A DNA stretch of 39,531 bases from contig JACMMG010000015.1 in assembly GCA_014379165.1 (NCBI GenBank), positions 1 through 39,531 on the forward strand. Direction: 5' to 3'. A model generated the notes under the pieces. The model was not told the origin of the DNA, did not search any database, and saw nothing but the letters and a program-made list of their open reading frames with translations. Both the position numbers and the translations under genes were made by a program. Each line of letters begins with the position of its first letter. Within the stretch, counting starts at the first letter, position 1. Below are positions 6,461-34,571 of the stretch, one piece after another. This DNA comes from Candidatus Parcubacteria bacterium (GTDB lineage Bacteria > Patescibacteriota > Minisyncoccia > Phycocordibacterales > SBAW01).

Positions 6461-6490
6461 TTGACACAAGCCTAACTGATATGGTATAAT
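6461..6490 (+). promoter_or_regulatory. sigma70-type promoter for 6552..7520
   Basis: TTGACA (6461-6466), 18-nt spacer, TGgTATAAT extended -10 (TATAAT 6485-6490). Confidence 0.6.
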
Positions 6491-6551
6491 AGACAGGAAT
6501 GCACGCCTAAAGGACTATCCTAGGGCGAATAATTGAAAAGGAGGGCAAAAA

Positions 6552-7520
6552 TTGAGATATACCTTCTATACAAGCATCCTTCTGCTGGTGGCGCTTGCCG
6601 CTGGCTTTGGGATGAGCCGCCTCACTCAGCCGGCCTCTTTCGAGTTGGCATTGGCTGAGGCGGAGATGAAAGAGGCCGATCCGCAGCTTGCTGCGGCTCT
6701 GGCACAATACCCCGAGGCAACTCGGCGGGTGCTCACAATTTACGGGCACACGCAGGAGTTCCAGGAGGTATTGCATTGGTATGGGCACAATCAAGTCGTG
6801 CCCATCATCAACAAGTGCCTTGCCGGGGGTGGCGACACGCTTATCGAGCTTGGCAACGACCTCGATGAGCTAATCGATGCGGCGTGGAACTGGCGCAAGC
6901 CGGAACTCACAGCATTCGATCCCGTACAGTGCGGTTGGCGAGCGATCGTTCTGACGCACGAAACCGGGAACGACTTTCTTGGGCAGTTCGTTATTGACCA
7001 TGAAAGCGGTAACGCCATGCGTCGCCCCAGCAACTCCATGCTCGCGGTGGTTAAGGGTCTGACCATTAGTGGGCTTCAAAAACTCGAGGAGCGTTTCATC
7101 TTGGGTGAAAGCCCGACGCTCACCGAGTGGGGTATGGGGGCGCTTGACCTCGCGATAATTGGCGCGGCTGGAAAGTCGGTTGCGGTGATCGTAAAGGGAG
7201 GGCTCGCCAAGAAGGCTCTTCCCCGCACTCTCGTGGGCCGCTTTGCAGCAGCCAATCGTGGGGTGCTCACGGTCGCCAAGGCCTATGCGCCGACACTCGC
7301 AAAGTACGGAACGATTGTGGGGGTGGGATACTTGGCGATCTATCATCCCGCAATCATTACTGGATGGGCAGGGACAATCGCTGAAGTGCTCGGCTTTGAC
7401 CCCCTCCTCATCCAGACGTTGGTCTGGGGGGCGATTCTCTTTGTTCCCGTCTGGCTTATCCTCAGCATAATCTCCCCTTTCATCTGGCTTTTCCGGATCG
7501 GAAGGGGAATAACGAGGTGA
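6552..7520 (+). CDS. hypothetical membrane protein (orphan, G+C-richer)
   Basis: TTG start preceded by AAGGAGGG (6538-6545). N-terminal TM/signal segment and C-terminal TM helices. No family recognised. Own promoter and terminator. Confidence 0.6.
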   Translation: MRYTFYTSILLLVALAAGFGMSRLTQPASFELALAEAEMKEADPQLAAALAQYPEATRRVLTIYGHTQEFQEVLHWYGHNQVVPIINKCLAGGGDTLIELGNDLDELIDAAWNWRKPELTAFDPVQCGWRAIVLTHETGNDFLGQFVIDHESGNAMRRPSNSMLAVVKGLTISGLQKLEERFILGESPTLTEWGMGALDLAIIGAAGKSVAVIVKGGLAKKALPRTLVGRFAAANRGVLTVAKAYAPTLAKYGTIVGVGYLAIYHPAIITGWAGTIAEVLGFDPLLIQTLVWGAILFVPVWLILSIISPFIWLFRIGRGITR

Positions 7521-7533
7521 CCAGACATGTTTC

Positions 7534-7575
7534 GATCGCCGGCGGGTAACACTGCCGGCGATCTTTCTTTTTATT
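7534..7575. terminator. strong hairpin / bidirectional terminator
   Basis: Perfect 10-bp stem GATCGCCGGC (7534-7543) / GCCGGCGATC (7554-7563) with a 10-nt loop, followed by TTTCTTTTTATT. It lies between convergent genes. Confidence 0.7.
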
Positions 7576-9499: not shown

Positions 9500-9600
9500 C
9501 GCGTCCTCCCTTTCACAGGTGCGGTTTCTAGTTTAAGTACTCCGTATACTTTTTTTCACATTCTGACAGGTTGTGCAAGTGGTATAATATTGTGCGACGT

Positions 9601-10512
9601 ATGGCTAGTGGTGATTTGAAATCTCTTAAAACGCAGTTCCTCGAATATCTCGAGATAGAAAAGGGTCGCTCTGTAAAAACGGTCGAAAATTACGACCGCT
9701 ACATCGACCGTTTTTTGCAGCACAGTAAGATAACCTTTCCCGCAAAGCTGACCGAAACCTCTGTGCGCGAGTTCCGCTTGCACTTAAACCGCCAAGCGGG
9801 CACTTCTGGCACAATGAAGCACAAAACGCAGAACTATTACCTCATTGCCATACGCGCGTTTCTTAAATTTTTGCGAAAGCGTGAGATTGAAAGCCTTAAT
9901 CCCGAGCGCATCGAGCTAGCGAAAGTGGGCGCGCGCGACTTAGACCTCATTACCCACGACGAGCTTAATCGCCTTATGCAAGCGCCCAAGGGGCCAGCGC
10001 TCCAATCGCTTCGGGACAGGGCGATGATGGAACTTCTATTTTCAACCGGTCTACGTGTTTCAGAGCTTGTGGGACTCGACCGCGACCTAGACCTCTCTCG
10101 CGATGAATTTAGCGTGCGTGGCAAAGGTGAAAAAATCCGTGTCGTGTTTCTCTCCCCTACTGCAAAAACGGCGATTAAGCACTATTTAGACAAACGCACC
10201 GACCTCGATAATGCGCTCTTTGTTCAGATGGGAAAAGCGGTAAAAAGCGCTAAAGAGCTACGTCTTACCTCCCGCTCGGTAGAGCGCTTAGTCAAACGTC
10301 ATGCGATTAAGGCTGGAATTACCCGCAAAGTGACCCCACACGTCATTCGGCACTCCTTTGCGACCGATTTGCTTGAAAATGGAGCCGATCTGCGCTCTGT
10401 ACAGGCACTTTTGGGCCATGCCAATATCACCACGACCCAGGTCTATACCCATGTAACAGACAAACACTTGCGGGAAATTCATAAGAACTTCCATGGCAAA
10501 AGGCGCAAATAG
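9601..10512 (+). CDS. xerC: tyrosine recombinase, XerC/XerD family
   Basis: N-terminal SAM-like core-binding domain. Catalytic motifs RHSFAT, LGHANITTTQVYTHV and the R..E box (GLRVSELVGL). Start set to ATG 9601. Confidence 0.9.
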   Translation: MASGDLKSLKTQFLEYLEIEKGRSVKTVENYDRYIDRFLQHSKITFPAKLTETSVREFRLHLNRQAGTSGTMKHKTQNYYLIAIRAFLKFLRKREIESLNPERIELAKVGARDLDLITHDELNRLMQAPKGPALQSLRDRAMMELLFSTGLRVSELVGLDRDLDLSRDEFSVRGKGEKIRVVFLSPTAKTAIKHYLDKRTDLDNALFVQMGKAVKSAKELRLTSRSVERLVKRHAIKAGITRKVTPHVIRHSFATDLLENGADLRSVQALLGHANITTTQVYTHVTDKHLREIHKNFHGKRRK

Positions 10513-10526
10513 AGTATTATGGAGGT

Positions 10527-11354
10527 GTGAAAATCGTCTCGTGGAACGTTAATGGTATACGGGCGGTGCATAAAAAGGGCCTTTTTTTGCCTTTTATTAA
10601 GGAAATACAGCCCGACATCCTCTGCCTGCAGGAAACTAAGGCCGAACAAGGCCAGGCGCAGATAGACCTCCCCGAGTATGAGGAGTATTGGAATTCTGCG
10701 GTTAAAAAAGGATACAGCGGCACTGCTATCTTTGTCAGGACAAAGATAAATAAAAAAGATGTTAATTTTAAGCCGCTTCAGGTGCTTAAGGGTCTTCCTG
10801 AAGCCATCATCAAAAAACATACAATAGAGGCCGACGGCTATGGCGACCCCAATACTGAAGGCCGAGTCCTAGCGGCTGAGTTTAAAGACTTCTGGGTTGT
10901 CACGGTCTACACGCCTAATTCCAAAGACGACCTCTCAAGGCTGGAGCTTCGGCATAAGTACTGGGACCCTGCCTTTCTAAGTTATATAAAGAGCCTGGAG
11001 GCCTCCAAGCCTGTTATATTCTGTGGCGACCTTAACGCCGCTCATACCGAGGACGACTTGGCTAACCCGAAGCAAAATGAAGGTGAACACGGCTTTACTA
11101 AAGAGGAACGTGAAGGCCTCAGCACAATCATAGCTGCAGGGTTTGTAGATTCTTTCCGCCATTTCATTCCGACCGGCAAGGGCCACTATACCTGGTGGAC
11201 GCACTGGGCTAATGCTCGGGTTCGTAACGTGGGTTGGCGTATAGATTACTTTTTTATATCAAAAAAATTGCTCCCGAAGCTTAAAAAAGCTGAAATTTTG
11301 AGCGCCGTCCTGGGCTCTGACCACTGCCCTGTTTTAATTGAATTAAAGGGGTAG
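10527..11354 (+). CDS. xth: exodeoxyribonuclease III
   Basis: GTG start after GGAGG. MKIVSWNVNGIRA..., CLQETK and GSDHCPV are typical of the ExoIII/APE family. Confidence 0.93.
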   Translation: MKIVSWNVNGIRAVHKKGLFLPFIKEIQPDILCLQETKAEQGQAQIDLPEYEEYWNSAVKKGYSGTAIFVRTKINKKDVNFKPLQVLKGLPEAIIKKHTIEADGYGDPNTEGRVLAAEFKDFWVVTVYTPNSKDDLSRLELRHKYWDPAFLSYIKSLEASKPVIFCGDLNAAHTEDDLANPKQNEGEHGFTKEEREGLSTIIAAGFVDSFRHFIPTGKGHYTWWTHWANARVRNVGWRIDYFFISKKLLPKLKKAEILSAVLGSDHCPVLIELKG

Positions 11355-13318: not shown

Positions 13319-13390
13319 GCTCCTGTGGTGAAATGGATATCTTCGCTGCCTTCGAAGCAGTTGTTGGGGGTTCGACTCCCTCCGGGAGCA
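13319..13390 (+). tRNA. tRNA-Arg (anticodon UCG), no encoded CCA
   Basis: Hand-folded 72-nt cloverleaf. Acceptor GCTCCTG/CGGGAGC (one G-U). Anticodon stem GCTGC/GCAGT with loop CTTCGAA (U33, A37). T arm GGGGG-TTCGACT-CCCTC. The D stem is weak. An alternative Gly-GCC fold is less canonical. Confidence 0.7.
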
Positions 13391-13414
13391 CAAGCGTAGC
13401 GTAGTGCGACCGGA

Positions 13415-13437
13415 AAAAGCCAATTGATTGGCTTTTT
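13415..13437 (+). terminator. hairpin/terminator after tRNA-Arg
   Basis: AAAAGCCAA-TTGA-TTGGCTTTT, a 9-bp stem ending in a T-run. Confidence 0.5.
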
Positions 13438-13599
13438 AGGGATTCGAAAGGCGGAAGCTTATTGCATCAGCAGATGCAATGCTGAGCCGGGGTCGCGAGC
13501 GACTTTTTCGACGGAAAAAGTCGACTTGTGACCGAATTCCCTTCCAAAGCAGCATTTGTTGGAGAATTTCATAGAACAAGCTAGAATTGCTCTGTTCTT

Positions 13600-13670
13600 G
13601 CGGCCATAGTTTAGGGGTATGACGGCTCCTTGCCAAGGAGCAGACGCGAGTTCGATTCTCGCTGGCCGCA
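13600..13670 (+). tRNA. tRNA-Gly (anticodon GCC), no encoded CCA
   Basis: Acceptor GCGGCCA/TGGCCGC. Anticodon arm GCTCC-TTGCCAA-GGAGC. T arm GCGAG-TTCGATT-CTCGC. 71 nt. Confidence 0.88.
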
Positions 13671-13813
13671 CTGGGAAATAGGAGTTTTAAAGGACTTCCC
13701 TCGCTTCACTTGTGGATAACATTGGGGACATGTGCATAAAAGACACTTTTGTGTCCTGTAGAAGGTCCTTTATGTTTCATATGAAACGTTTTCACGTGAA
13801 AATGCCTTAAAAT

Positions 13814-14230
13814 ATGACCCCATCCCCTAAAAGGAAAATTGGTGACACGGGAGAAGAAATAGCATGTAAGTTTCTCCAAAAAAAAGGCTATAAAATCGTG
13901 GAAAGAAACTACTGGAAGCCTTGGGGAGAGATAGATATCGTCGCCCAAAAGCCGAAATCACTAGTATTTGTCGAAGTAAAATCCGTTTCACGTGAAATTG
14001 AAGTAAAGGGTGGTTCACGTGAAATCACCCTTAGGGAAGGGAATGAAGAGATGCGGCCCGAAGAGAACATGCATCCGGAAAAGCTCAAACGTCTTCACAG
14101 AGCAATACAAACGTACCTATTAGAACGTAAAATTTCTGAAGATAGGATGTGGCAGATTGATTTAGTTTGTGTCTTTTTAGATTTTTCGACTAAAAAGGCT
14201 AAGGTGGAGTTATTAGAAAACATAAGTTAA
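13814..14230 (+). CDS. yraN: YraN-family (UPF0102) endonuclease-like protein
   Basis: GDTGEEIACKFLQKKGYKIVERNYWKPWGEIDIVAQ...LVFVEVKS matches the YraN core. It carries an insertion relative to short family members. Confidence 0.85.
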   Translation: MTPSPKRKIGDTGEEIACKFLQKKGYKIVERNYWKPWGEIDIVAQKPKSLVFVEVKSVSREIEVKGGSREITLREGNEEMRPEENMHPEKLKRLHRAIQTYLLERKISEDRMWQIDLVCVFLDFSTKKAKVELLENIS

Positions 14231-14288
14231 GGGAACACTTATGCCTATTCGATAGGCGAAGGGAACACTTATGCTAAGTACTCTCGCG
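14229..14288 (+). repeat. two tandem 30-nt units sharing AAGGGAACACTTATGC
   Basis: Unit 1 is 14229-14258 and unit 2 is 14259-14288, with an identical 16-mer at the start of each. A degenerate third unit starts at 14289. The motif recurs at 30407-30426. Confidence 0.8.
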
Positions 14289-14405
14289 AAGGGTATATGT
14301 ACCCCATGCAAAGCGGCATAAAGGACAAATCTGTTTTCTGTGTTAGATTAATAGTCACCCAGGCGTCGCATATTAGTAGCGCTTGCGTGAGGTGAAAAAT
14401 TTATT

Positions 14406-14479
14406 CGGGGCGTCGTATACCGGTAGTACGCTTGCTTTGGGAGCAAGATGACCCAGTCCGATTCTGGGCGCCCCGACCA
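14406..14479 (+). tRNA. tRNA-Pro (anticodon UGG), CCA encoded
   Basis: Acceptor CGGGGCG/CGCCCCG. Anticodon arm CTTGC-TTTGGGA-GCAAG (G37). T arm CCCAG-TCCGATT-CTGGG, with an unusual C at the position normally U55. Followed by A-CCA. Confidence 0.8.
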
Positions 14480-14489
14480 ATAGAAAAAT

Positions 14490-15362
14490 ATGGAACGCTT
14501 TGTTTTAACTACTAAGAGTTCGAGCGATTATGAACTTCTCGACTCCGGAGGAGAGGAAAAGCTCGAACGGTATGGCGGCGCGCTCCTTACAAGGCCTGAT
14601 CCGCAAGCCCTTTGGAGCAAACACCTGTCGGAAGCAGAGTGGGCAAAGTCAGATGGAAGGTTTGTGCGCGAAGGAGGGGAGGGGAGATGGAATGTAAAAG
14701 CAGAACTTCCAAAGGAATGGCAGATCAGCTTCGGTGGTCTGCAGTTTTTCATCCGTCCGACGTCTTTTAAACATACGGGCCTTTTTCCTGAACAGCTTCC
14801 AAATTGGGAGTGGGGAAGAGAGCTTATAAAAAATGCCAACCGCCCTATTTCTGTTTTAAATTTATTCGGCTACACGGGTGGAGCGTCGCTTGCCGCTGCA
14901 CAGGCTGGCTCTTCAGTCGTACATGTAGACGCGTCAAAAACAGCTGTGGCGTGGGCCCGTCAGAATGCAGAGGCCTCAGGGTTAGGGGATAAACCCATTC
15001 GTTGGATCGTGGAAGATGCGTTGACCTTCGTAAAGCGTGAAATAAAGCGGGGAAATAAATATGACGCAATTATTATGGACCCGCCAGCATTCGGCCACGG
15101 TCCAAAAGATGAATTATGGAAAATTGAAGAAGATTTCGTCGCCTTCGTTGAATTGTGTACTCAGCTTTTAAGCGACAATCCGCTATTTGTCTTGGTAAAC
15201 GGCTATGCTGCGGGGTATTCGTCTTTTGCATTTGCGTATAATCTTGATGCTCTTAACAAAAAGTTTGGAGGAAAAGTAGAACACGGCGATCTTACAATTG
15301 AAGAGAAGACGACTGGTCGGCTACTACCATGCGGCATTTTCGCCCGGTGGCAGAGAATTTGA
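14490..15362 (+). CDS. class I SAM-dependent methyltransferase (RlmI/PF10672-like)
   Basis: VLNLFGYTGGASLAAAQAGSSVVHVDASKTAVAWARQNAEASGL ... YDAIIMDPPAFG are typical SAM-binding and catalytic motifs. Confidence 0.85.
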   Translation: MERFVLTTKSSSDYELLDSGGEEKLERYGGALLTRPDPQALWSKHLSEAEWAKSDGRFVREGGEGRWNVKAELPKEWQISFGGLQFFIRPTSFKHTGLFPEQLPNWEWGRELIKNANRPISVLNLFGYTGGASLAAAQAGSSVVHVDASKTAVAWARQNAEASGLGDKPIRWIVEDALTFVKREIKRGNKYDAIIMDPPAFGHGPKDELWKIEEDFVAFVELCTQLLSDNPLFVLVNGYAAGYSSFAFAYNLDALNKKFGGKVEHGDLTIEEKTTGRLLPCGIFARWQRI

Positions 15363-15385
15363 TATAGTAGCGAAGCGTTTACATA

Positions 15386-15456
15386 GCGGGATTAGTTTAG
15401 TGGTAAAACGACAGTTTTCCAAACTGTAGTTGGGAGTTCGATTCTCCCATCCCGCA
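15386..15456 (+). tRNA. tRNA-Gly (anticodon UCC), no encoded CCA
   Basis: Acceptor GCGGGAT/ATCCCGC. Anticodon arm ACAGT-TTTCCAA-ACTGT. T arm GGGAG-TTCGATT-CTCCC. 71 nt. Confidence 0.88.
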
Positions 15457-15577
15457 CACGTAGTTTGCCTGCCAAACGTAGTGGCAGGGATGGAAGAATC
15501 GAAAGGCACAGCGGGGCACCCATCCCGCACATGTTGGGGTTAATTTAATAAATTATGCTTTGTGATAGAGTTTAAAT

Positions 15578-24068: not shown

Positions 24069-24115
24069 ATAAGGTAAAGTACATTTCGGTTCAACTCAAA
24101 CCATTGGGGGCGAAT

Positions 24116-24499
24116 ATGCTCAATGTAGATCAAGAAACGTTCCGCGATCTGGTCTTGATAGGTGGGACGATCGCGGTAGCAGTCGTCTTGGGTGGCCTCT
24201 TGCTTTGGGGGCTCATCAGTATCATCAAGCGATTCTCGCTGACCTTCATCGCCATAATCGTGGCGGGCGCGATGGTGGTGGTGTTGGCAATCATGCCACC
24301 AACCCCTGAGATAGTGAGCTTACGTGAGGGTGCGATGGTCATTGGTGCCCTCGCGGTTATCGGCGGCTTCGCTATTGATCTGTTTAAGAAACACAACGAG
24401 GCCAAGGCAAGGCAGAAGAAGAAATCACACAAACCCAACAAGAAGGACCTCCTCGCCCAGCTTCTGGCTGCGGAAGCTGACGAGGGCAGGGGTCACTAG
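24116..24499 (+). CDS. hypothetical small membrane protein
   Basis: ATG 24116 after GGGGG (the track gives TTG 24104). Three predicted TM helices and a basic C-terminal tail. No family recognised. Confidence 0.5.
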   Translation: MLNVDQETFRDLVLIGGTIAVAVVLGGLLLWGLISIIKRFSLTFIAIIVAGAMVVVLAIMPPTPEIVSLREGAMVIGALAVIGGFAIDLFKKHNEAKARQKKKSHKPNKKDLLAQLLAAEADEGRGH

Positions 24500-24523
24500 T
24501 TCCAACTCGCGACCTTGTCGCAC

Positions 24524-24556
24524 AAGGGGCCCGGCAAAAGCTTGGGCCTCTTTTTA
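24524..24556 (+). terminator. intrinsic terminator
   Basis: AAGGGGCCC...GGGCCTCTT stem (one mismatch) followed by TTTTTATT. Confidence 0.5.
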
Positions 24557-24632
24557 TTCCAAATTGACGAAAATCACTCTTTACTGCAAAGTTTGATTAG
24601 AAGCGGTAACGCAAGGTCGTAGGGGTAGTGTC

Positions 24633-24989
24633 ATGGCAACGATTATTGTCAGACTGATTGCGAGCATATCACTCGCAGGAGCGTGGTGGCACATGTTTGT
24701 CCTTGGTCGCATCATATTTTCGACCTTCGGCTGTAACAAGATCGGCGCGCGCGGAGCATGTGCTGATCTGCAGGAGGCGTATTATGAGGGTCTTCGACAG
24801 GGGGGCATCGTGCTGCTGCTAATCGCCTTAGCCTATAGACTCATAACCCGGACTCGCCGGGGCTCACACACCGCTGATCAAGAGCGGTTCGACAAGTTCT
24901 TCTTCGTAGGCATACTGGCATCTTTTTTTGCTGGTTGCCTTGCTACAGGCATCACAGGCTACATGAACTACGGGATTGCGGCCCTGTAG
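24633..24989 (+). CDS. hypothetical small membrane protein
   Basis: 118-aa ORF with 3-4 hydrophobic helices. No family recognised. Confidence 0.5.
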   Translation: MATIIVRLIASISLAGAWWHMFVLGRIIFSTFGCNKIGARGACADLQEAYYEGLRQGGIVLLLIALAYRLITRTRRGSHTADQERFDKFFFVGILASFFAGCLATGITGYMNYGIAAL

Positions 24990-28694: not shown

Positions 28695-30325
28695 TGCAGG
28701 TTGATGAAGCAGGGCTACGGGATTTTTTGATTGACTCCGGCACACTTTCGCGCCGGCAGTTAAGCGATATAGGGGAAACAAACGCACCTTTATACGACAC
28801 GCTACTTTCGCGCGGCATTATTTCTCAAGATGAGCTGCGTCGCGCAGTTGCAGGAGTCTCCGGTGTACCGTTTGTAGTCCTTGGGCACGATGATATTGCA
28901 ACGGAAGCGCTCCTTTATATACCCGAGCCCATTGCTCGCACGCACAATCTTGCTGGGTTTCGCGTACAGGGTGGCGATTTGGAAGTGGCACTTCTTGATC
29001 TTGAAGATCTCTCGGCGATTACTTTTCTGCAAGAAGAAAGAGGTGTGCGAATACTTCCACGGCTTACGACCGCCGACTCGCTTAAGCGAGCGCTTATTGC
29101 GTACCATAAACACCTTAAAGAAAAATTTGCGGATTCGCTACGCTCCAAAAGTGATCCTATCGGGGCTGCCGATGCACTTTTGGCACACGCGATGCTCCAC
29201 CGCGCCAGCGCAATCCATATATCTGCACGGGAATTTCCCCGCCTCGCCGAAGACTCGCCTCGATTCAGCGAAGCGGGCGTCGAGTCGAGGCGGGTTTCAG
29301 GCCAAGGAGAACTCTTAGTGCGCTATAGGATTAACGGAAAAATGTTTGATGCGATGACGCTGCCGCGCGAAGCTGCGGGGATTATAGAGAGGTTTAAAGA
29401 GCTTGCGAATATTTCTTTAACGCTACCAACTCCACAAGAGGGAAGTTTCCGTGCGCGCTCAGGGGTTCAAGAGGAGATGCGCGTACGTGTTTCTACTATG
29501 CCAAATATGCACGGCGAGCGTGCAGTGCTACAGCTCACCCCCGTTGCGGGCACACTTTCGCGCAAAGGCTTTACGCTTGAGTCACTTGGGTTTCATGGAG
29601 AAAGTCTTGAAAGTGTGTATCGCACACTCAGCAACAGCTCCGGGCTTGTGCTTGTTGAAGGTAGCGAAGGTTCTGGAAAAACTACAACGCTCTACACGCT
29701 TCTAGATATTCTAAGCACCCCGCACCGCCTACTTGCAACAATTGAAGAACATATCGGTTTGCATTTGCCACACACAGAGCAAATGGAAGTCCGTCCGGAA
29801 ATTGGACTCACCATGGATGCCGGATTGCGCGCGATTCTTAAGCAAGACCCGCACGTAGTAATGATCGACAGTATCCGCGATACAAAAACCGCCGCGCTCG
29901 CCGCATCGGCGGCTTCGCGCGGCGCATTTGTCTTAGCAGGTACGCAAGAAAATTTTAAAGACGCAGGTGCAAAAATGCTATTACGAACGCGGGTAGTAGG
30001 GAAGGTCTGCCAGAACTGCAAAGAAAACTATCATCTTTCACGTACGGAGGCCGCACCTTTTGACGGTAAAGCAAATTTTGGCCGCGTACTTACAGCTTTA
30101 AAAGAGGAAGGAATAATTTCAAATGAAGTGCAATGGAAAGATTTACTGTTCTCCCATGCCGTTGGCTGCACAGAATGTGATAGTGGGTTTACGGGAGCGC
30201 TTGGGCTTCAAGAGGTAGAGGTAGGAGGGAAAATAGCGGGCCTTACTTTGGCGGAAGATGGGCTTTTTAAAGTTATTCAAGGACTCACAACAATAGAGGA
30301 GGTTACTAGGGCAATTGAGGCCTAA
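28694..30325 (+). CDS. GspE/PilB-family secretion ATPase homolog, divergent
   Basis: N-terminal T2SSE_N-like domain, VRYRINGK, PTPQEGSF, Walker A GSEGSGKTT (29660-29683) and CxxC...CxxC (CQNC...CTEC). The Walker B and His-box positions are non-canonical. Start set to ATG 28694. Confidence 0.8.
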   Translation: MQVDEAGLRDFLIDSGTLSRRQLSDIGETNAPLYDTLLSRGIISQDELRRAVAGVSGVPFVVLGHDDIATEALLYIPEPIARTHNLAGFRVQGGDLEVALLDLEDLSAITFLQEERGVRILPRLTTADSLKRALIAYHKHLKEKFADSLRSKSDPIGAADALLAHAMLHRASAIHISAREFPRLAEDSPRFSEAGVESRRVSGQGELLVRYRINGKMFDAMTLPREAAGIIERFKELANISLTLPTPQEGSFRARSGVQEEMRVRVSTMPNMHGERAVLQLTPVAGTLSRKGFTLESLGFHGESLESVYRTLSNSSGLVLVEGSEGSGKTTTLYTLLDILSTPHRLLATIEEHIGLHLPHTEQMEVRPEIGLTMDAGLRAILKQDPHVVMIDSIRDTKTAALAASAASRGAFVLAGTQENFKDAGAKMLLRTRVVGKVCQNCKENYHLSRTEAAPFDGKANFGRVLTALKEEGIISNEVQWKDLLFSHAVGCTECDSGFTGALGLQEVEVGGKIAGLTLAEDGLFKVIQGLTTIEEVTRAIEA

Positions 30326-30356
30326 TATAAGGAGAAAACAGCGTTACCCAATATAC

Positions 30357-30385
30357 TTGACAATAAGTCTAGTTAGGTGTATAAT
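30357..30385 (+). promoter_or_regulatory. perfect consensus sigma70 promoter
   Basis: TTGACA (30357-30362), exactly 17-nt spacer, TATAAT (30380-30385). Confidence 0.7.
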
Positions 30386-30421
30386 TGATACATACGCTTG
30401 AAATAGGTTAAGGGCACACTT

Positions 30422-30496
30422 ATGCCGAGTATTCTCGGCGAACAGCACTCTTTAGAGGAGAGGGCGCAAACCATTGGCTTTTCTATCTATTATTGA
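30422..30496 (+). CDS. candidate 24-aa small protein (or the unit is a ~165-nt sRNA)
   Basis: AAGGG SD-like motif 7 nt upstream of ATG 30422. Translation MPSILGEQHSLEERAQTIGFSIYY*. Bracketed by a consensus promoter and a long terminator. Confidence 0.4.
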   Translation: MPSILGEQHSLEERAQTIGFSIYY

Positions 30497-30499
30497 TGG

Positions 30500-30552
30500 G
30501 GCGATTGGGGAGCACTTCTTTTTATAAGGAGTACTGCCTAGTCGCCTTTTTT
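30500..30552 (+). terminator. long intrinsic terminator
   Basis: 19-position stem (30500-30518 / 30528-30546) with 14 Watson-Crick pairs, 3 G-U pairs and 2 mismatches, followed by TTTTTT (30547-30552). Confidence 0.75.
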
Positions 30553-30730
30553 CATACCGGCCTTTGACAAAAGAATAGACGAAAAAGAACAAAGGAGAGA
30601 AATCTCTAAATTGTTGTTCTTCTTCGCCAGACTCTAGGGGATAGCGTAAAAAACTCGAACCCTGGGTATGGCAGGAAGGACCGTAATAATAGTTCGTACG
30701 GTTCGAGGCTCAAAGCAGGGGAGAAGTAAG

Positions 30731-30832
30731 ATGAGCGAATTTGTGGAACGTATGTTCCCCAACCGGTACCACACTGCCGTCTGGGCGCTGGTTGCGGCGA
30801 TTATCACATCGCCGTTCGTGTTCATCGGCTGA
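30731..30832 (+). CDS. candidate small hydrophobic peptide (33 aa)
   Basis: GGGGAG SD upstream of ATG 30731. Translation MSEFVERMFPNRYHTAVWALVAAIITSPFVFIG*, with one TM-like segment. G+C-rich codon third positions like the rest of the island. Confidence 0.4.
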   Translation: MSEFVERMFPNRYHTAVWALVAAIITSPFVFIG

Positions 30833-30846
30833 AGAGGGAGACGAAG

Positions 30847-30960
30847 ATGAATTCGCAGATGTACACGCCGACTCCCTCGTCTGTTCTGGACGAGGAGATA
30901 TGGCAAGACGAGCTCACTGGACACGAGCTCGATACTCTTATCGCCCTCGTTGGCGAATAA
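30847..30960 (+). CDS. candidate small acidic protein (37 aa)
   Basis: GAGGGAG SD upstream of ATG 30847. Translation MNSQMYTPTPSSVLDEEIWQDELTGHELDTLIALVGE*. It starts 14 nt after the previous small ORF. Confidence 0.4.
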   Translation: MNSQMYTPTPSSVLDEEIWQDELTGHELDTLIALVGE

Positions 30961-30995
30961 GAGAATGGTGGTGACGGACTTTTTGCCCGTTACCG

Positions 30996-31042
30996 CCCCT
31001 CTCAAGCTCTTTACGCCTAAGGCGTAGAGAATTTGAGAGGGG
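30996..31042 (+). repeat. conserved bulged hairpin repeat, copy 1
   Basis: CCCCTCTCAAGCTCTTTACGCC-TAA-GGCGTAGAGAATTTGAGAGGGG. Preceded by an unrelated hairpin at 30970-30994. Confidence 0.9.
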
Positions 31043-31186
31043 TTATAGAAATATAATTCCTTCGTCTGCGTACTGACCTCCGTAGACGTAAAACTCGCAA
31101 ACGTTATTCCCGTACGCGGGGATGACAGGACTTTCACACAGTGCTCAAACCGCCCACCCCCGCGATAGCAGGGCTGGGTAGGAGGA

Positions 31187-32470
31187 ATGAAAATGTCGTG
31201 GAAATCTGATCGCATGAACGAAAAAGGTACCCGCCGCACAGCGCTTCGTCAGGAGCGTGCGCCGACCCTCGACGAGGCGATGAGCATGTTCCACGCCTCT
31301 CTGTCAGATGCGAGGCGTGTTGAACAGCGAGCGGGTAAGCGTGGTCTCTCCGGCTCGGGCATTTCGATGCTCGAAAATGCAGGGATCAACGCGTTTGAAT
31401 CTGCAACTGGACATCCGCTGCCCCCTAACCTGGTTGTTTCCGAAAGGAGCAATCTAGCGGTAGCAGGTTACCAGTTGCGCGACGGGGGCTTCCGTTTTTT
31501 TGAACGGGACGAGGCCGAGAAAATCCTCGTCACAGCTGCTCGCTTCGGCGGGTGGATGAAGGCCGCCGCGAAGTTGCCGGGAGTTCGCCGGCTTCTCCGT
31601 AGCACGCAGTCGGCGCGGGGCATCAACAGCCCCGCGACCAAGGTCGACTTGCGGGAAATCGTGCGCCGGTTTCCTTCACCGGGCCGCCTCGAGCGGCTCT
31701 TGTGGAATACGCGTCGTCGTGCGCGGGCGATTCTCTCGGATTTTGGTCCGGAGAAGCCCTCATGGGAGAATCTCGCGCGAGCCCTCCTCCATGACAGCCG
31801 CCCGAACAAGGCGGCAATCATGGCAGTGGCAGCTCAACTCGGTTGTCATTATGGCCGGAAGGCAACTTATCGCGCGGCTCGGGAATGGCTCACTGAGCGA
31901 CGTTCGGCCCTCTTCCCGCATATGGACACCACCGACGGTGTGACCGTCCGCATCGCTGCGGCTCCGGTCTACACAAAACTTGGCGTCGAAGTGTTTAGGG
32001 CTTTGCAGGTTGGCGAATATGGGCAGCGCGAGCTGCTCTGGTTTGTCCGCAAGGGCAAACGCACCTTCCACTGCGAAGAGTACCAGGCGGGATCCTATGT
32101 CGATGGGATATGGGTAACCAGCCCAAAGGCTGCAGTTCGCATTGCGATAGAGGCGTGGCAGAAGCAGGACGAACTCGCTGCCGAGGAGGCCAGGTTGGCC
32201 GCCGAAGCCCGGGAACATCACTCTGGACTCGCCATGTTTCTTGATGGGACCGAACTCGGGTTCTGTCCTCTCATCGACCGTCAGGACTCTTACGCGGCGG
32301 GCAACTGCCACGCAGGGACTGAAGGATGGGTTATGGAGCACGGTTGGAGAGCACGAGTTTTCCTTCCTGGCTTCAAACTCATCCCGTATCTTGGCGACGA
32401 ACGGGTTCGCAGGGTCGTCATGGCGGCACGTCGTCGTCGCGTCGATCAGACCGAAGCAGTCGCGGCTTAG
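31187..32470 (+). CDS. hypothetical Arg-rich protein (about 425 aa), orphan
   Basis: GGAGG at 31181-31185. ATG at 31187 or, with better spacing, 31193. Strong G/C third-position bias. No domain recognised. The antisense ORFs are judged spurious. Confidence 0.65.
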   Translation: MKMSWKSDRMNEKGTRRTALRQERAPTLDEAMSMFHASLSDARRVEQRAGKRGLSGSGISMLENAGINAFESATGHPLPPNLVVSERSNLAVAGYQLRDGGFRFFERDEAEKILVTAARFGGWMKAAAKLPGVRRLLRSTQSARGINSPATKVDLREIVRRFPSPGRLERLLWNTRRRARAILSDFGPEKPSWENLARALLHDSRPNKAAIMAVAAQLGCHYGRKATYRAAREWLTERRSALFPHMDTTDGVTVRIAAAPVYTKLGVEVFRALQVGEYGQRELLWFVRKGKRTFHCEEYQAGSYVDGIWVTSPKAAVRIAIEAWQKQDELAAEEARLAAEAREHHSGLAMFLDGTELGFCPLIDRQDSYAAGNCHAGTEGWVMEHGWRARVFLPGFKLIPYLGDERVRRVVMAARRRRVDQTEAVAA

Positions 32471-32557
32471 CCAGCTGCAATCGGTGATGGGAACACCGGA
32501 AGAAAAATAAAAACTCCAGATGTACCTTTGTTTGGCGCGAGTCTCTCTGACTCGTGC

Positions 32558-32604
32558 CGTCTTTCAAGCGCTTTACGCCCGAGGCGTAGAGAATTTGAAA
32601 GGGG
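32558..32604 (+). repeat. conserved bulged hairpin repeat, copy 2
   Basis: Shares an identical 43-nt core with copy 3. Preceded by an unrelated 9-bp hairpin at 32535-32557. Confidence 0.9.
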
Positions 32605-32655
32605 AGGTTAAATTAGTTTCGCGTGCTCCCCGCAACCCTAAAAGAGGAGGGCAAA

Positions 32656-32856
32656 ATGCAAGAACGCGATAAGTTCTGGGAGGAAGTCGAGCATTTCGGC
32701 TTCTGGCGCGCATTTGAGAGCGCCGAAGTTCAGCGGGAGGAAGAAAAGAGAAGGAAGTCTGCGGCGAGAAATCGGCCTGCAGAGTCTACTACTCTGAACT
32801 TCGTTCGCGCCGGCGAAACGCGACCCGGCATCCCGCTGTACGTTTTTGAACAATAG
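32656..32856 (+). CDS. hypothetical small charged protein (66 aa)
   Basis: GAGGAGG SD (32644-32650) upstream of ATG 32656. Translation MQERDKFWEEVEHFGFWRAFESAEVQREEEKRRKS... Confidence 0.45.
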   Translation: MQERDKFWEEVEHFGFWRAFESAEVQREEEKRRKSAARNRPAESTTLNFVRAGETRPGIPLYVFEQ

Positions 32857-32889
32857 GGAACAGTGAGGTTCCCGGAAAGGAAGGATAAA

Positions 32890-33333
32890 GTGCTGAGAAA
32901 AATCGCAACCCTGTTCTTCATGGTGCTGTGCGTTGCATATGCGATATGCTGTTCGCTGGTCTTCACCGAAGTGAAAGAAATTACCCACTTCGGATTTCTG
33001 CCGCCAATCCTGGCCGCAGTCTTGGCCGATAGCGGAGCGATGCACATGGTCGCGTTCCTCGCCGTTTTCTTCGCGCTCGGTTCCGGTCTCTTTGCTTGGG
33101 ACTGGTGGAGGTTGCCACGGTTACACGGCCGATACTACCAGGCCGAAGTAGTCGTCTTCCCCGATGACAATCCGGAATATTCGATTGAAGGGAAGATCTA
33201 TGCTCTATGGCTATGTGCTTGGGTGGAAATGTACACCCTCGCGCTTGGGCACTATGGCGCAAAGATGCGGCAAGTTCACCAGATCGACGCTCGCGATGCT
33301 GTCTACTATCGGCGGTACGAGCAGGCTCAATAA
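32890..33333 (+). CDS. hypothetical multi-TM membrane protein (147 aa)
   Basis: GTG 32890 after GGAAGGA (the track start GTG 32863 has poor SD spacing). At least three hydrophobic helices. No family recognised. Confidence 0.55.
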   Translation: MLRKIATLFFMVLCVAYAICCSLVFTEVKEITHFGFLPPILAAVLADSGAMHMVAFLAVFFALGSGLFAWDWWRLPRLHGRYYQAEVVVFPDDNPEYSIEGKIYALWLCAWVEMYTLALGHYGAKMRQVHQIDARDAVYYRRYEQAQ

Positions 33334-33376
33334 CAACTGGGGGGCGCGACGAGATGAGTAACTCTCGCGCCGCCCA

Positions 33377-33421
33377 CCCTTTCAAGCGCTTTACGCCCGA
33401 GGCGTAGAGAATTTGAAAGGG
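33377..33421 (+). repeat. conserved bulged hairpin repeat, copy 3
   Basis: CCCTTTCAAGCGCTTTACGCC-CGA-GGCGTAGAGAATTTGAAAGGG. Preceded by an unrelated hairpin at 33343-33371. Confidence 0.9.
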
Positions 33422-33482
33422 TTACAGCAATAGTGCGGCGGACCCTGCGCTCATGTATTTGGGCGCCAGTAGGAGTAAGCGT

Positions 33483-33677
33483 ATGCGTACGAGTAAGTTA
33501 TGGGAGAATCGTAGCGATGAGGAACAAGCAGACATCCTTACTGCTGCGGCGATCGCATATACGGCGCGGTCATTTGCTCAGGAACGCGATCAAAAGCCAA
33601 TTGATGCGGCACATGATCGCGGCCAAGCGCAAGTTGCTTGGCAAGACGCGTTTGACCTGATCTATAACAAACCCTGA
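33483..33677 (+). CDS. hypothetical small protein (64 aa)
   Basis: AGGAG (33471-33475) lies 7 nt upstream of ATG 33483. Translation MRTSKLWENRSDEEQADILTAAAIAYTARSF... Followed by a GC-rich terminator hairpin. Confidence 0.45.
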   Translation: MRTSKLWENRSDEEQADILTAAAIAYTARSFAQERDQKPIDAAHDRGQAQVAWQDAFDLIYNKP

Positions 33678-33684
33678 TCTCTCT

Positions 33685-33727
33685 TCCGGCGGCCCGCACG
33701 CGGGCCGCCGGAGAAGCTTTGTTCTTT
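33685..33727 (+). terminator. GC-rich hairpin terminator closing the island
   Basis: TCCGGCGGCCCG-CACG-CGGGCCGCCGGA 12-bp stem, then a T-rich tail (GCTTTGTTCTTT). Confidence 0.65.
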
Positions 33728-33828
33728 AGTTATGTATGGTCGCCTTTGTGCTGTGAGTGGATCCTCTAGCGCTTAATCTTCGGATTGAACGCATTCCATT
33801 CGCAGCCCAATGGCGATCAGCAGCAAAC

Positions 33829-33861
33829 AGAAGCCCCGCACAAAAATTGTGCGGGGCTTCT
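33829..33861. other. orphan perfect 15-bp hairpin
   Basis: AGAAGCCCCGCACAA-AAA-TTGTGCGGGGCTTCT. No adjacent ORF that it obviously terminates. Confidence 0.8.
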
Positions 33862-33915
33862 CGTTACTCTGTTTTATCCATAGCCCCGGCTCCTCATCTC
33901 AGCTCGCTTATCTTT

Positions 33916-33953
33916 ACTTGTTTAGTGTTCACGGTCGTGTATTATAAGCAAGT
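33916..33953 (+). promoter_or_regulatory. imperfect palindrome overlapping promoter-like elements, abutting PaaX-like start
   Basis: The left half TTACTTGTTTAGTGTTCACGGTCGTG (from 33914) matches the left half of the perfect palindrome at 34574-34611. It contains TTGTTT, a 16-nt spacer and TATTAT, ending 8 nt before ATG 33954. Confidence 0.5.
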
Positions 33954-34571
33954 ATGGCAAATGGAATCGGGAAGAAAAGATCGCTTGAAGAAGAATCAAG
34001 AAAACGCCTGCGACGTAGAAAAATAGAGAATGCTGTTTTGAATACTCTAACCGCAACCGCCGGTTTGGCAGTTGCGGTTACTGCGCCCAACATGCTTCGC
34101 ATGCTCAAACACATTGATCCCGACTGGAGAAAAAAACGCGATCCCCGTCAGCGACTTTTTGAAACAGCGAGTCGACTTAAGCGCAAAGGCCTTGTGATAT
34201 TTGTTCAAGAATCCGGGAAGACGCACATGCGTATCACTCGCCACGGCAGAGAAATATTGAGGCAAGATTTTTTGACGCCACATTCTTTGCCGAAACCTAA
34301 AAAGTGGGACGGTAGGTGGAGACTCGTTATTTTTGATATCCCGGAAACACAACGATCAGTGCGGGATAAGATTCGTAGTGCTATTACAACGTTCGGTTTC
34401 GTGTGCTTGCAAGACAGTGTATGGGTGTATCCGTATGATTGTGAGGAGTTGGTAGCGCTTTTTAAGGCTGAACTTAAGATCGGTAAAAACCTCTTGTATC
34501 TTATTGCCGATGCTATTGAGTATGACAAACCACTGCGAGCAAAATTCGGTCTTCCGGAACAGACTTCTTAG
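33954..34571 (+). CDS. PaaX-family / Cas2-fold wHTH regulator-like protein
   Basis: WDGRWRLVIFDIPETQRSVRDKIRSAITTFGFVCLQDSVWVYP matches the PaaX C-terminal/Cas2-like signature. N-terminal basic region plus a wHTH-like segment. Confidence 0.75.
   Translation: MANGIGKKRSLEEESRKRLRRRKIENAVLNTLTATAGLAVAVTAPNMLRMLKHIDPDWRKKRDPRQRLFETASRLKRKGLVIFVQESGKTHMRITRHGREILRQDFLTPHSLPKPKKWDGRWRLVIFDIPETQRSVRDKIRSAITTFGFVCLQDSVWVYPYDCEELVALFKAELKIGKNLLYLIADAIEYDKPLRAKFGLPEQTS

Follow-up and report, generated by a model that had tools for sequence, protein, structure and literature searches.

A hypervariable, cassette-like putative operon with intercistronic hairpins downstream of pilB in a Parcubacteria genome, with a new set of RNA motifs and a new protein family

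The closest described counterparts of the locus reported here are chromosomal integrons and clusters of attC sites lacking an integrase (CALINs), the hairpins of the phage T7 early operon and the repetitive extragenic palindromes and bacterial interspersed mosaic elements (REP/BIME), and the toxin-immunity cassette arrays of contact-dependent inhibition (CDI) and Rhs systems. The RNase III hairpins of T7 and the stem-loops of REP/BIME serve to process or stabilise mRNA. The locus lies in a stretch of 39,531 nt of Candidatus Parcubacteria bacterium (assembly GCA_014379165.1, contig JACMMG010000015.1, positions 1 to 39,531 of the forward strand; hereafter, the window), downstream of pilB, the gene for the type IV pilus ATPase. 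It is a hypervariable, cassette-like putative operon whose cistrons are punctuated by hairpins, with a new set of RNA motifs and a new protein family, and the conserved unit spans positions ~30357 to ~33868.

Like integrons and CALINs, the array combines a single upstream promoter with co-oriented, promoterless orphan open reading frames (ORFs) and an imperfect, structure-conserved hairpin after each ORF or ORF pair; its hairpins are likewise more alike within than between genomes, and its content is variable, with a composition unlike that of the host. Unlike them, it has neither IntI nor any other adjacent recombinase and no R''/R' cores, it folds on the sense strand with conserved G·U pairs, an extra G+C-rich hairpin always precedes the main one, elaborate and conserved leader and trailer RNAs frame the array, and the host belongs to the Parcubacteria, within the candidate phyla radiation (CPR). 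With the T7 and REP/BIME hairpins it shares irregular hairpins of ~20 bp between cistrons, a strong strand specificity and small, variable genes led by Shine-Dalgarno (SD) motifs, but it is chromosomal, its frame appears to be vertically inherited, and its hairpin has a conserved sequence core and is always paired with an upstream G+C-rich hairpin. Finally, it resembles CDI and Rhs arrays in being a hypervariable set of co-oriented small orphans at a fixed locus, rich in small membrane proteins and presumably reshaped by recombination; it differs from them in lacking matches to toxin domains or immunity families and a large upstream toxin gene, and in that its cassettes are bounded by structured hairpins rather than by toxin-gene fragments. 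Our search of the literature for cassette or hairpin systems in CPR returned integron papers only.

CPR bacteria have tiny genomes in which most accessory genes are uncharacterised, and the locus provides four reproducible and searchable things: a conserved, hypervariable site beside the pilus ATPase gene, where strain-specific proteins of the cell surface or of host interaction may be concentrated; a set of RNA motifs (leader, double hairpin and trailer) that is new, covaries strongly and has no counterpart in Rfam; a family of about 300 protein clusters whose fold is predicted with confidence and matches nothing solved; and a sharp split in translation signals between housekeeping genes, which have almost no SD motifs and many of which are apparently leaderless, and array genes, which are SD-led. 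The features of the unit are as follows.

30357..30385, plus strand: sigma-70-type promoter, TTGACA-17-TATAAT, 12 of 12 matches, 32 nt past the pilB stop codon
30392..30552, plus strand: promoter-proximal leader RNA of ~160 nt, recognised in alignments between loci, ending in a long-stem intrinsic terminator
30563..30690, plus strand: second leader segment, including a stem-loop of ~22 bp at 30611-30686
30731..30832, plus strand: ORF1, 33 aa, one hydrophobic segment, SD GGGGAG, no homologue found
30847..30960, plus strand: ORF2, 37 aa, acidic, net charge -8, SD GAGGGAG
30970..31042, plus strand: punctuation unit 1, hairpin A 30970-30994 and hairpin B 30996-31042
31043..31192, plus strand: conserved 5′ untranslated region (UTR) of ORF3; its hairpin (31064-31088) precedes UAAAAC
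31193..32470, plus strand: ORF3, 425 aa, 12.2% Arg, net charge +19
32534..32604, plus strand: punctuation unit 2, hairpin A 32534-32558 and hairpin B 32560-32604
32656..32856, plus strand: ORF4, 66 aa, charged, SD GAGGAGGG
32890..33333, plus strand: ORF5, 147-aa membrane protein, GTG start, at least two transmembrane (TM)-like segments
33340..33422, plus strand: punctuation unit 3, hairpin A 33340-33375 and hairpin B 33376-33422
33483..33677, plus strand: ORF6, 64 aa, SD AGGAG, host-like G+C at third codon positions (GC3) of 0.46
33684..33713, plus strand: G+C-rich 13-bp hairpin after ORF6, -29.7 kcal/mol, z = -4.3, weak U tail
33738..33818, plus strand: conserved trailer stem-loop of ~35 bp with a UUCG-capped inner helix, -43.5 kcal/mol, z = -6.2
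33826..33868, plus strand: intrinsic terminator closing the unit, an inverted repeat, -32.6 kcal/mol, z = -9.2

The array is defined, first of all, by the frame that encloses it. The promoter is conserved in six related loci (L006, L005, L009, L001, L014 and L059; we use such handles for the loci compared here), and the leader behind it contains the conserved boxes UUGAAAUAG, GGCAC and CUUUUAGAGGAGG and ends in a terminator hairpin (30498-30548; -30.1 kcal/mol, z = -6.4, then U6) whose stem carries compensatory changes across four loci. Because the promoter lies upstream of this terminator, the hairpin closes the leader and does not merely mark the end of pilB; the leader RNA is a candidate attenuator or small RNA. 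Given that promoter and leader also precede arrays to which pilB is not adjacent (L001 and L011), they go with the array and not with pilB. In the alignment of window positions 30357-30690, the second leader segment is ~97% identical to L006 over the last 130 nt of the leader; its ~22-bp stem covaries in four loci, and directly after this stem homology between loci breaks, at a point common to six loci. At the other end, the G+C-rich hairpin after ORF6 (33684-33713) is a hairpin A without a following hairpin B, the trailer of L006 aligns with window positions 33738-33830, and 13 pairs of the trailer stem show compensatory changes in four loci; the relatives have an equivalent closing terminator of different sequence. 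A conserved UAGAGGAGG box of the leader has no ORF after it.

None of these RNAs matches an Rfam family: at the gathering thresholds of the 4227 Rfam models, leader, hairpins and trailer are unmatched and the window's matches are four tRNAs only, whereas relaxed scans of 30300-34000 and of the L014 array gave sub-threshold, terminator-like matches only. A tmRNA, tRNA or other known non-coding RNA as integration target or leader was rejected, as none was found. A 20-nt direct repeat (30530-49 and 33728-47, 75% identical) was considered as an att site or target-site duplication and rejected, since neither L006 nor L009 shows the similarity and each copy forms part of a conserved structural stem.

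Within the frame, an imperfect hairpin of 43 nt occurs three times, always between ORFs (30999-31041, 32561-32603 and 33379-33421; 0 expected by chance), and the outer stem of the first copy differs from those of the other two by a compensatory change. Each copy belongs to a double unit in which a G+C-rich hairpin A, beginning just past the upstream stop codon, abuts hairpin B, an arrangement found in 25 of 25 copies; some units separate ORF pairs rather than single ORFs. Hairpin B, of ~20 bp, has the conserved sequence core AAGYRCUU ... UUGAGNRUUU. An initial set of 13 hand-collected copies already gave an 18-bp helix with 11 compensatory pairs; among 25 copies from 7 genomes, 89% of cells are paired (at most 57% in slid controls) and 12 of the 18 pairs show compensatory change. 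The covariance model finds hairpin B only inside arrays, always with its best match on the ORF strand; in nine loci comprising ~150 kb, every match at E <= 1e-4 is within an array. Furthermore, G·U pairs outnumber A·C pairs 55 to 20, two wobble positions are kept in 20 and 22 of the 25 copies, and the fold of the sense strand is more stable than that of the antisense strand by 4.8 kcal/mol (p = 8e-7). Given the confinement to arrays, the bias toward the ORF strand and the conserved G·U pairs, the hairpin most likely acts in RNA.

The units also mark the points at which related loci part. Homology stops right after ...GGGTT at the 3′ end of each hairpin, and unit 1 of the window is 84% identical to the last unit of L006, with unrelated flanks on both sides. 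The 5′ arm of hairpin B (CCCCUUUCAA, e.g., in 33376-33422) is pyrimidine-rich and resembles the 3′ tail of 16S rRNA, and the 3′ arm (UUGAAAGGGG[AGG]) resembles an extended SD, so that hairpin B may sequester an SD-like element. The hairpin pattern gave 39 single matches in IMG/VR, which the covariance model showed to be chance matches. Two independent Logan contigs end at the same base of the locus, 88 nt past pilB (L007 6384-6472; L008 4168-4256), and in L014 a run of N at 10908-11008 is flanked by a duplicated hairpin segment; these assembly breaks fit repeat-induced or strain-level heterogeneity.

The same frame of promoter, leader, hairpins and trailer occupies the pilB...tpiA interval in eight relatives, namely L006, L005 joined to L003, L009, L014, L016, L058, L059 and, in rearranged form, L011, where the unit is upstream of pilB-pilC; L011 aside, the PilB proteins of these relatives are 43-61% identical to that of the window. 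L006, a metagenome-assembled genome labelled Candidatus Saccharibacteria whose locus is read on the minus strand, was found by an exact-pattern scan for the hairpin, and the further loci through PilB homologues. In L006, pilB is followed by the promoter, the leader, two unrelated small ORFs separated by hairpins, the trailer and tpiA; the joined L005-L003 locus has at least nine ORFs, including an ORF3 homologue, and then tpiA-pgk. The frame is likewise present in L014 and L015, L016 and L017, and L058 and L059, and in L001 the promoter, leader and ORF3 stand beside murG. L009 and L010, considered as strain variants, proved to be identical in sequence. An empty pilB-tpiA junction was seen in none of the eight relative loci.

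What the frame encloses is, by contrast, hardly shared at all. L014 and L016 are 72-82% identical at the nucleotide level in NusA, PilB, Tpi and Pgk and 88% identical in the leader, whereas the three ORFs of the one and the five of the other are unrelated, and the hairpins are the sole matching parts of the stretch from leader to trailer. When the small ORFs of 9 arrays were compared (34 in all), a relationship could be detected for no more than 3 pairs; approximately one-third of these ORFs carry TM-like segments.

Array genes are also set apart from host genes in composition and in translation signals. The first-pass annotation placed the island at 30553-33727, with six plus-strand ORFs, all of which exist, and estimated its G+C content from single lines of sequence as 57-75% inside and 38-53% in the flanks; the rise is real but was overstated, the actual gap being ~7 points (55.9% against 48.6% for the rest of the contig). 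A sliding-window computation bore out the deviation, the island being the highest-G+C stretch of its size (3175-nt stretches: mean 49.0%, standard deviation 2.4%, maximum 56.2% at 30651) with raised GC3. For ORF3, G+C is 60.4% and GC3 0.64, compared with a GC3 of 0.40-0.55 for host genes on the contig; across several genomes, GC3 is 0.60-0.78 in arrays and ~0.45-0.56 in host genes, and array genes exceed their flanks in every genome compared. Genes drawn from a foreign pool could account for the raised GC3, as could GC-biased gene conversion if the locus is a hotspot of recombination. The good SD motifs described for the island are there, in that each of the six ORFs has a match of 4-6 nt, located 5-12 nt before the start codon. 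Counting matches of 4 nt or more, SDs are present in front of 25 of 29 array genes (86%) as against 3 of 65 host genes (5%), the host genes being those of the window plus L009, L011, L014 and L016. Many host genes, for example, tpiA and pilB, instead show a box resembling TATAAT or TATACT at 6-12 nt before the start codon, a hint that leaderless mRNAs are widespread among them.

As for its borders, the island was described as starting after a strong terminator and ending with a G+C-rich one. Both hairpins fold strongly; the left one belongs to the leader of the array, and the right one has a weak U tail. The proposed limits fall short of the conserved unit. Overlooked were the promoter (30357-30385), the three 43-nt hairpin copies, and the conserved leader and trailer.

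The largest protein of the array, ORF3, belongs to the new family. Its close homologues (35-62% identity) are in L001-L005 and L011, the N-terminus, MSWKSDRMNE, recurring in L005 as MSWKSSRMNE, and a profile search recovered 300 clusters at 50% identity, 224 of them at E <= 1e-10. Invariant in the family are His293, Gly370, Cys372 and Gly375, with the motif DSYxAGNCxxGTxxW, and near-invariant are Asp248, Asp365, Ser366, Asn371, Thr376 and several Arg/Lys residues. Pfam gave no domain in any of 81 family members, and the PDB holds no sequence relative; tblastn found nothing in 50,697 phage records or in the plasmid collection, and pattern-based searches of GTDB representative genomes and IMG/VR, limited by the patterns used, found no member. 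An earlier model from six sequences, with a predicted local distance difference test score (pLDDT) of 64 and an uninformative fold search, was replaced by an AlphaFold2 model from an 81-sequence alignment, with a pLDDT of 88.7 and a predicted template modelling score of 0.74. A structure search with this model, a check that the first-pass annotation proposed for the 425-aa protein, gave no Foldseek match at E <= 0.001 (best in PDB, E = 0.036; best in BFVD, E = 0.029 with a TM-score of 0.13). In GenBank (MBC7836390, locus tag H7X87_01260), the annotated protein is no more than the C-terminal 269 aa; the homologues, together with conservation and model confidence over residues 100-160, show the 425-aa form to be correct.

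With its conserved set of His, Cys and Asp residues, this basic protein may be an enzyme. One lead is to the permuted papain-like enzymes (LRAT and NlpC/P60): the invariant His is on a predicted beta-strand and, ~80 residues later, the invariant Asn-Cys is at the N-terminus of a helix, and the order His ... Asn-Cys is that of permuted NlpC/P60 proteins. ORF3 differs from these enzymes in having no match in Pfam (81 members), among PDB sequences or in Foldseek, and we treat the likeness as a lead only, with no claim of membership. A replication protein or relaxase of the HUH type, suggested by the order of His293 and Tyr367, was rejected, given that the second metal ligand is not conserved and Foldseek shows no HUH fold.

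ORF3 is accompanied by its 5′ UTR, which aligns with L005 9865-10004 and L001 ~10185-10335 and shows compensatory stem changes (from blastn and from reading the sequences), and the pair occurs in differing array positions and differing loci among the relatives. The hairpins do not depend on it, as the short arrays L006, L009, L014 and L016 have them without ORF3. In L005/L003, ORF3 is in the same slot and is 47-62% identical to that of the window, where PilB is 47% identical; because the two proteins have diverged to a similar degree, ORF3 looks vertically inherited. Distant family members are found in L057, among toxin-antitoxin genes, and in L012 and L013, the contig genes of which have in-frame stops under genetic code 11; these two are probably recoded CPR such as Gracilibacteria. 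In L012 and L013 a divergent TrmB-like gene is upstream, and a long run of co-oriented ORFs of no known family comes after. TrmB-like regulators were considered as a fixed partner of the array, but are near only some arrays (L007, L011 and L012/13) and not consistently adjacent.

The remaining ORFs are orphans. As the first-pass annotation had it, no family can be assigned: the six ORFs have no match in Pfam, PHROGs, PADLOC or NCBIfam, PHROGs giving only E >= 0.025 and the PADLOC-DB models nothing at E <= 0.1 for any of the six (the PaaX-like neighbour matches a Cas2-like domain weakly). A search of a 5.8-billion-cluster collection found only ORF5 itself in the ORF5 cluster, although its C-terminus resembles, by eye only, a 114-aa ORF of L014. 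ORF1 and ORF2 are apparently unannotated in GenBank, where the accessions of pilB and ORF3 are consecutive. When the array was checked for type I toxin-antitoxin modules, small hydrophobic ORFs were present (ORF1), the minus-strand promoter-like site at 30713-30686 was weak (9 of 12 matches), and no family was conserved. Since many array proteins are small membrane proteins and the locus adjoins pilus genes, roles in a strain-specific envelope or in host interaction might be expected, which we say with low confidence.

To this evidence we would fit, with about an even chance of being right, the following explanation, which is also the simplest: between pilB and tpiA lies a slot for gene expression that is native and passed on by vertical descent, transcribed as one unit from ~30357 to ~33868 and subject to rapid turnover of its cassettes. 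The consensus promoter would drive the whole unit; the ~160-nt leader, with its own terminator, would act as an attenuator or small RNA and would be followed by the long 5′ stem; the polycistronic transcript would carry SD-led ORFs, with cistrons or cistron pairs separated by the double hairpin (A, G+C-rich; B, ~20 bp), and would end in the long 3′ stem and terminator. The double hairpins would serve RNA processing or stability, as do the sites at which RNase III cuts the early transcript of phage T7. While the frame would be passed on vertically, the inner ORFs would turn over by replacement, gain and loss, with the hairpins and end elements probably serving as homology patches for ORF exchange, and the outcome would be a pool of G+C-richer, SD-bearing orphan genes, many encoding small membrane proteins. 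One promoter, one final terminator and 25 hairpins, all intergenic and on the ORF strand, are in line with punctuation at the RNA level.

Several observations weigh against this explanation. Despite their sense-strand folding, the hairpins may function as single-stranded DNA, and they have neither U tracts nor an identified RNase or RNA-binding partner. The higher GC3 and strong SDs could mark foreign genes, from a phage or another lineage, and complete non-homology of ORFs between fairly close genomes exceeds what is usual in operon evolution. For ORF1, ORF2, ORF4 and ORF6 no homologue was detected, and for ORF5 there is the by-eye likeness only; what marks these five putative genes as coding is SD motifs, GC3 and hydrophobicity. 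A more far-reaching version, which we entertain only tentatively, is an integrase-free gene-cassette platform of CPR, in which a vertical frame would capture and swap SD-bearing, GC3-rich orphan cassettes, the double hairpin would be both RNA punctuation and recombination joint, and the ORF3 family would be a new, linked enzyme. Were cassettes shown to be exchanged at the hairpins, gene capture would have a second solution of the integron kind, in an unexpected phylum.

The main rival, closer still to integrons and in our estimate unlikely, is the explanation that the hairpins are single-stranded DNA recombination sites like attC and the end of the leader a counterpart of attI, in a cassette platform without IntI; the candidate recombinases would be the Xer-like enzyme encoded at 9571-10512, the 425-aa protein or another enzyme. 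The promoterless, co-oriented ORFs behind one strong promoter, the imperfect and structure-conserved hairpins after them, the unrelated content between conserved ends in related genomes, and a composition unlike that of the host are all in line with it, as are the fixed points at which homology stops (past the leader stem and past ...GGGTT), the similar units of the window (unit 1) and L006 (last unit; 84% identity) between unrelated flanks, and the assemblies that break or duplicate at the locus. Yet none of the 9 arrays has a tyrosine recombinase next to it, the short, hairpin-bearing arrays (L006, L009, L014 and L016) lack the 425-aa protein, and no excision junction was observed; moreover, some units separate ORF pairs and the last cassette of the window is without hairpin B. 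Integron attC sites fold on the opposite, bottom strand, whereas here the folding strand, with its conserved G·U pairs, is the sense strand, and the cores RYYYAAC and GTTRRRY (R''/R') are, as read from the sequence, absent from the outer stem. On these last two grounds, a canonical attC was rejected.

The first-pass annotation had instead, as a speculation, found the island compatible with a horizontally acquired accessory module for defence, toxin-immunity or of phage origin, which we take here as a discrete and recent insertion between pilB and the PaaX-like gene. The accessory and orphan character of the genes, their deviant composition and their variability between relatives stand; a discrete recent insertion does not, being contradicted by synteny. 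Such an insertion would lead one to expect relatives with pilB directly followed by tpiA, but there is none, and eight relatives carry the same frame: frame and site are conserved in every relative examined, with no empty site found, and the divergence of ORF3 about equals that of PilB. The borders have no convincing direct repeat and, as the annotation stated, no integrase, transposase or tRNA (no integrase or transposase within 10 kb of the island; the tRNAs of the window are at 13.3-15.5 kb). Neither a defence, toxin-immunity nor phage family was detected among the array proteins, with no match in the PADLOC, PHROGs, phage, plasmid or IMG/VR collections. In its favour are the G+C content of the island, the highest along the contig, the orphan status of all six proteins, the small hydrophobic and acidic ones among them, and the setting of the distant family member L057 among toxin-antitoxin genes; we nevertheless regard this origin as improbable.

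There is, in our view, similarly little chance that the array is what remains of a phage or satellite that was domesticated or is decaying, with host-interaction genes of the early-operon type, RNase III-type hairpins and a preferred site. In its architecture, the array does resemble the early region of phage T7, where a strong promoter and a terminator enclose small, variable, SD-led orphans with hairpins repeated between the cistrons; the array also departs from the host in SD use and GC3, and the site adjoins genes of the type IV pilus, a common phage receptor. However, no structural, replication, integration or lysis gene is present, no significant match was obtained to PHROGs, to BFVD, in tblastn searches of the 50,697 phage records or in IMG/VR, and the leader diverges in step with the host genes. 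Finally, it is highly improbable that ORF3 is the only gene and the small ORFs are chance frames in a long structured RNA, because, although ORF1, ORF2, ORF4 and ORF6 have no detected homologue and ORF5 a by-eye one only, ORF1 and ORF2 are not annotated by GenBank and large parts of the locus are demonstrably structured RNA, correctly spaced SDs precede 25 of 29 array ORFs (host genes, 5%), the frames themselves have an elevated GC3, hydrophobic segments of TM length recur, and a few small ORFs are conserved as proteins between genomes.

The array is set among housekeeping genes. On its left are the genes for RNase Y, ClpP, trigger factor, a DHH phosphoesterase, NusA and PilB, and on its right those for the PaaX-like protein, TpiA and Pgk. 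Other features of the window that bear on the locus are the following.

9571-10512: Xer-like tyrosine recombinase, with a SAM-like N-terminal domain and a Phage_integrase domain, ~20 kb from the array
13319-15457: tRNA genes Arg-TCG, Gly-GCC, Pro-TGG and Gly-TCC, with short ORFs interspersed
33954-34571: PaaX-like gene, directly 3′ of the closing terminator

The Xer-like gene is the only one for a tyrosine recombinase in the window and is followed by an Exo_endo_phos nuclease gene; the four tRNAs, at 13.3-15.5 kb, are the only ones found in the window by the Rfam scan, and neither a tRNA nor an integrase was found at the island borders. In the PaaX-like protein, the middle domain is Cas2-like (PF20803, E = 3e-23). 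Its gene adjoins the array only in the window: the L009 homologue is 4 kb further downstream, and there is none between array and tpiA in L006, L014 and L016. The assembly carries the organism label 'Acetobacteraceae bacterium', which is at odds with nr, where the contig is labelled Candidatus Parcubacteria bacterium, and also with a gene content of CPR type and with the synteny.

An orphan gene elsewhere in the window (6461-7520) shares the signature of array genes, with its own TTGACA/TATAAT promoter, the SD AAAGGAGGG and a TTG start; its GC3 is 0.67, it encodes a hydrophobic N-terminal segment, it has no Pfam match, and a terminator follows at ~7535-7560. A second variable spot lies between clpP and tig, where the window (24104-24989) has small plus-strand ORFs without a confident family and no hairpin B was found; the spot contains at least three small ORFs in L059 (972-2149) and in L002, and in the latter additionally an ORF3 homologue and hairpin B.

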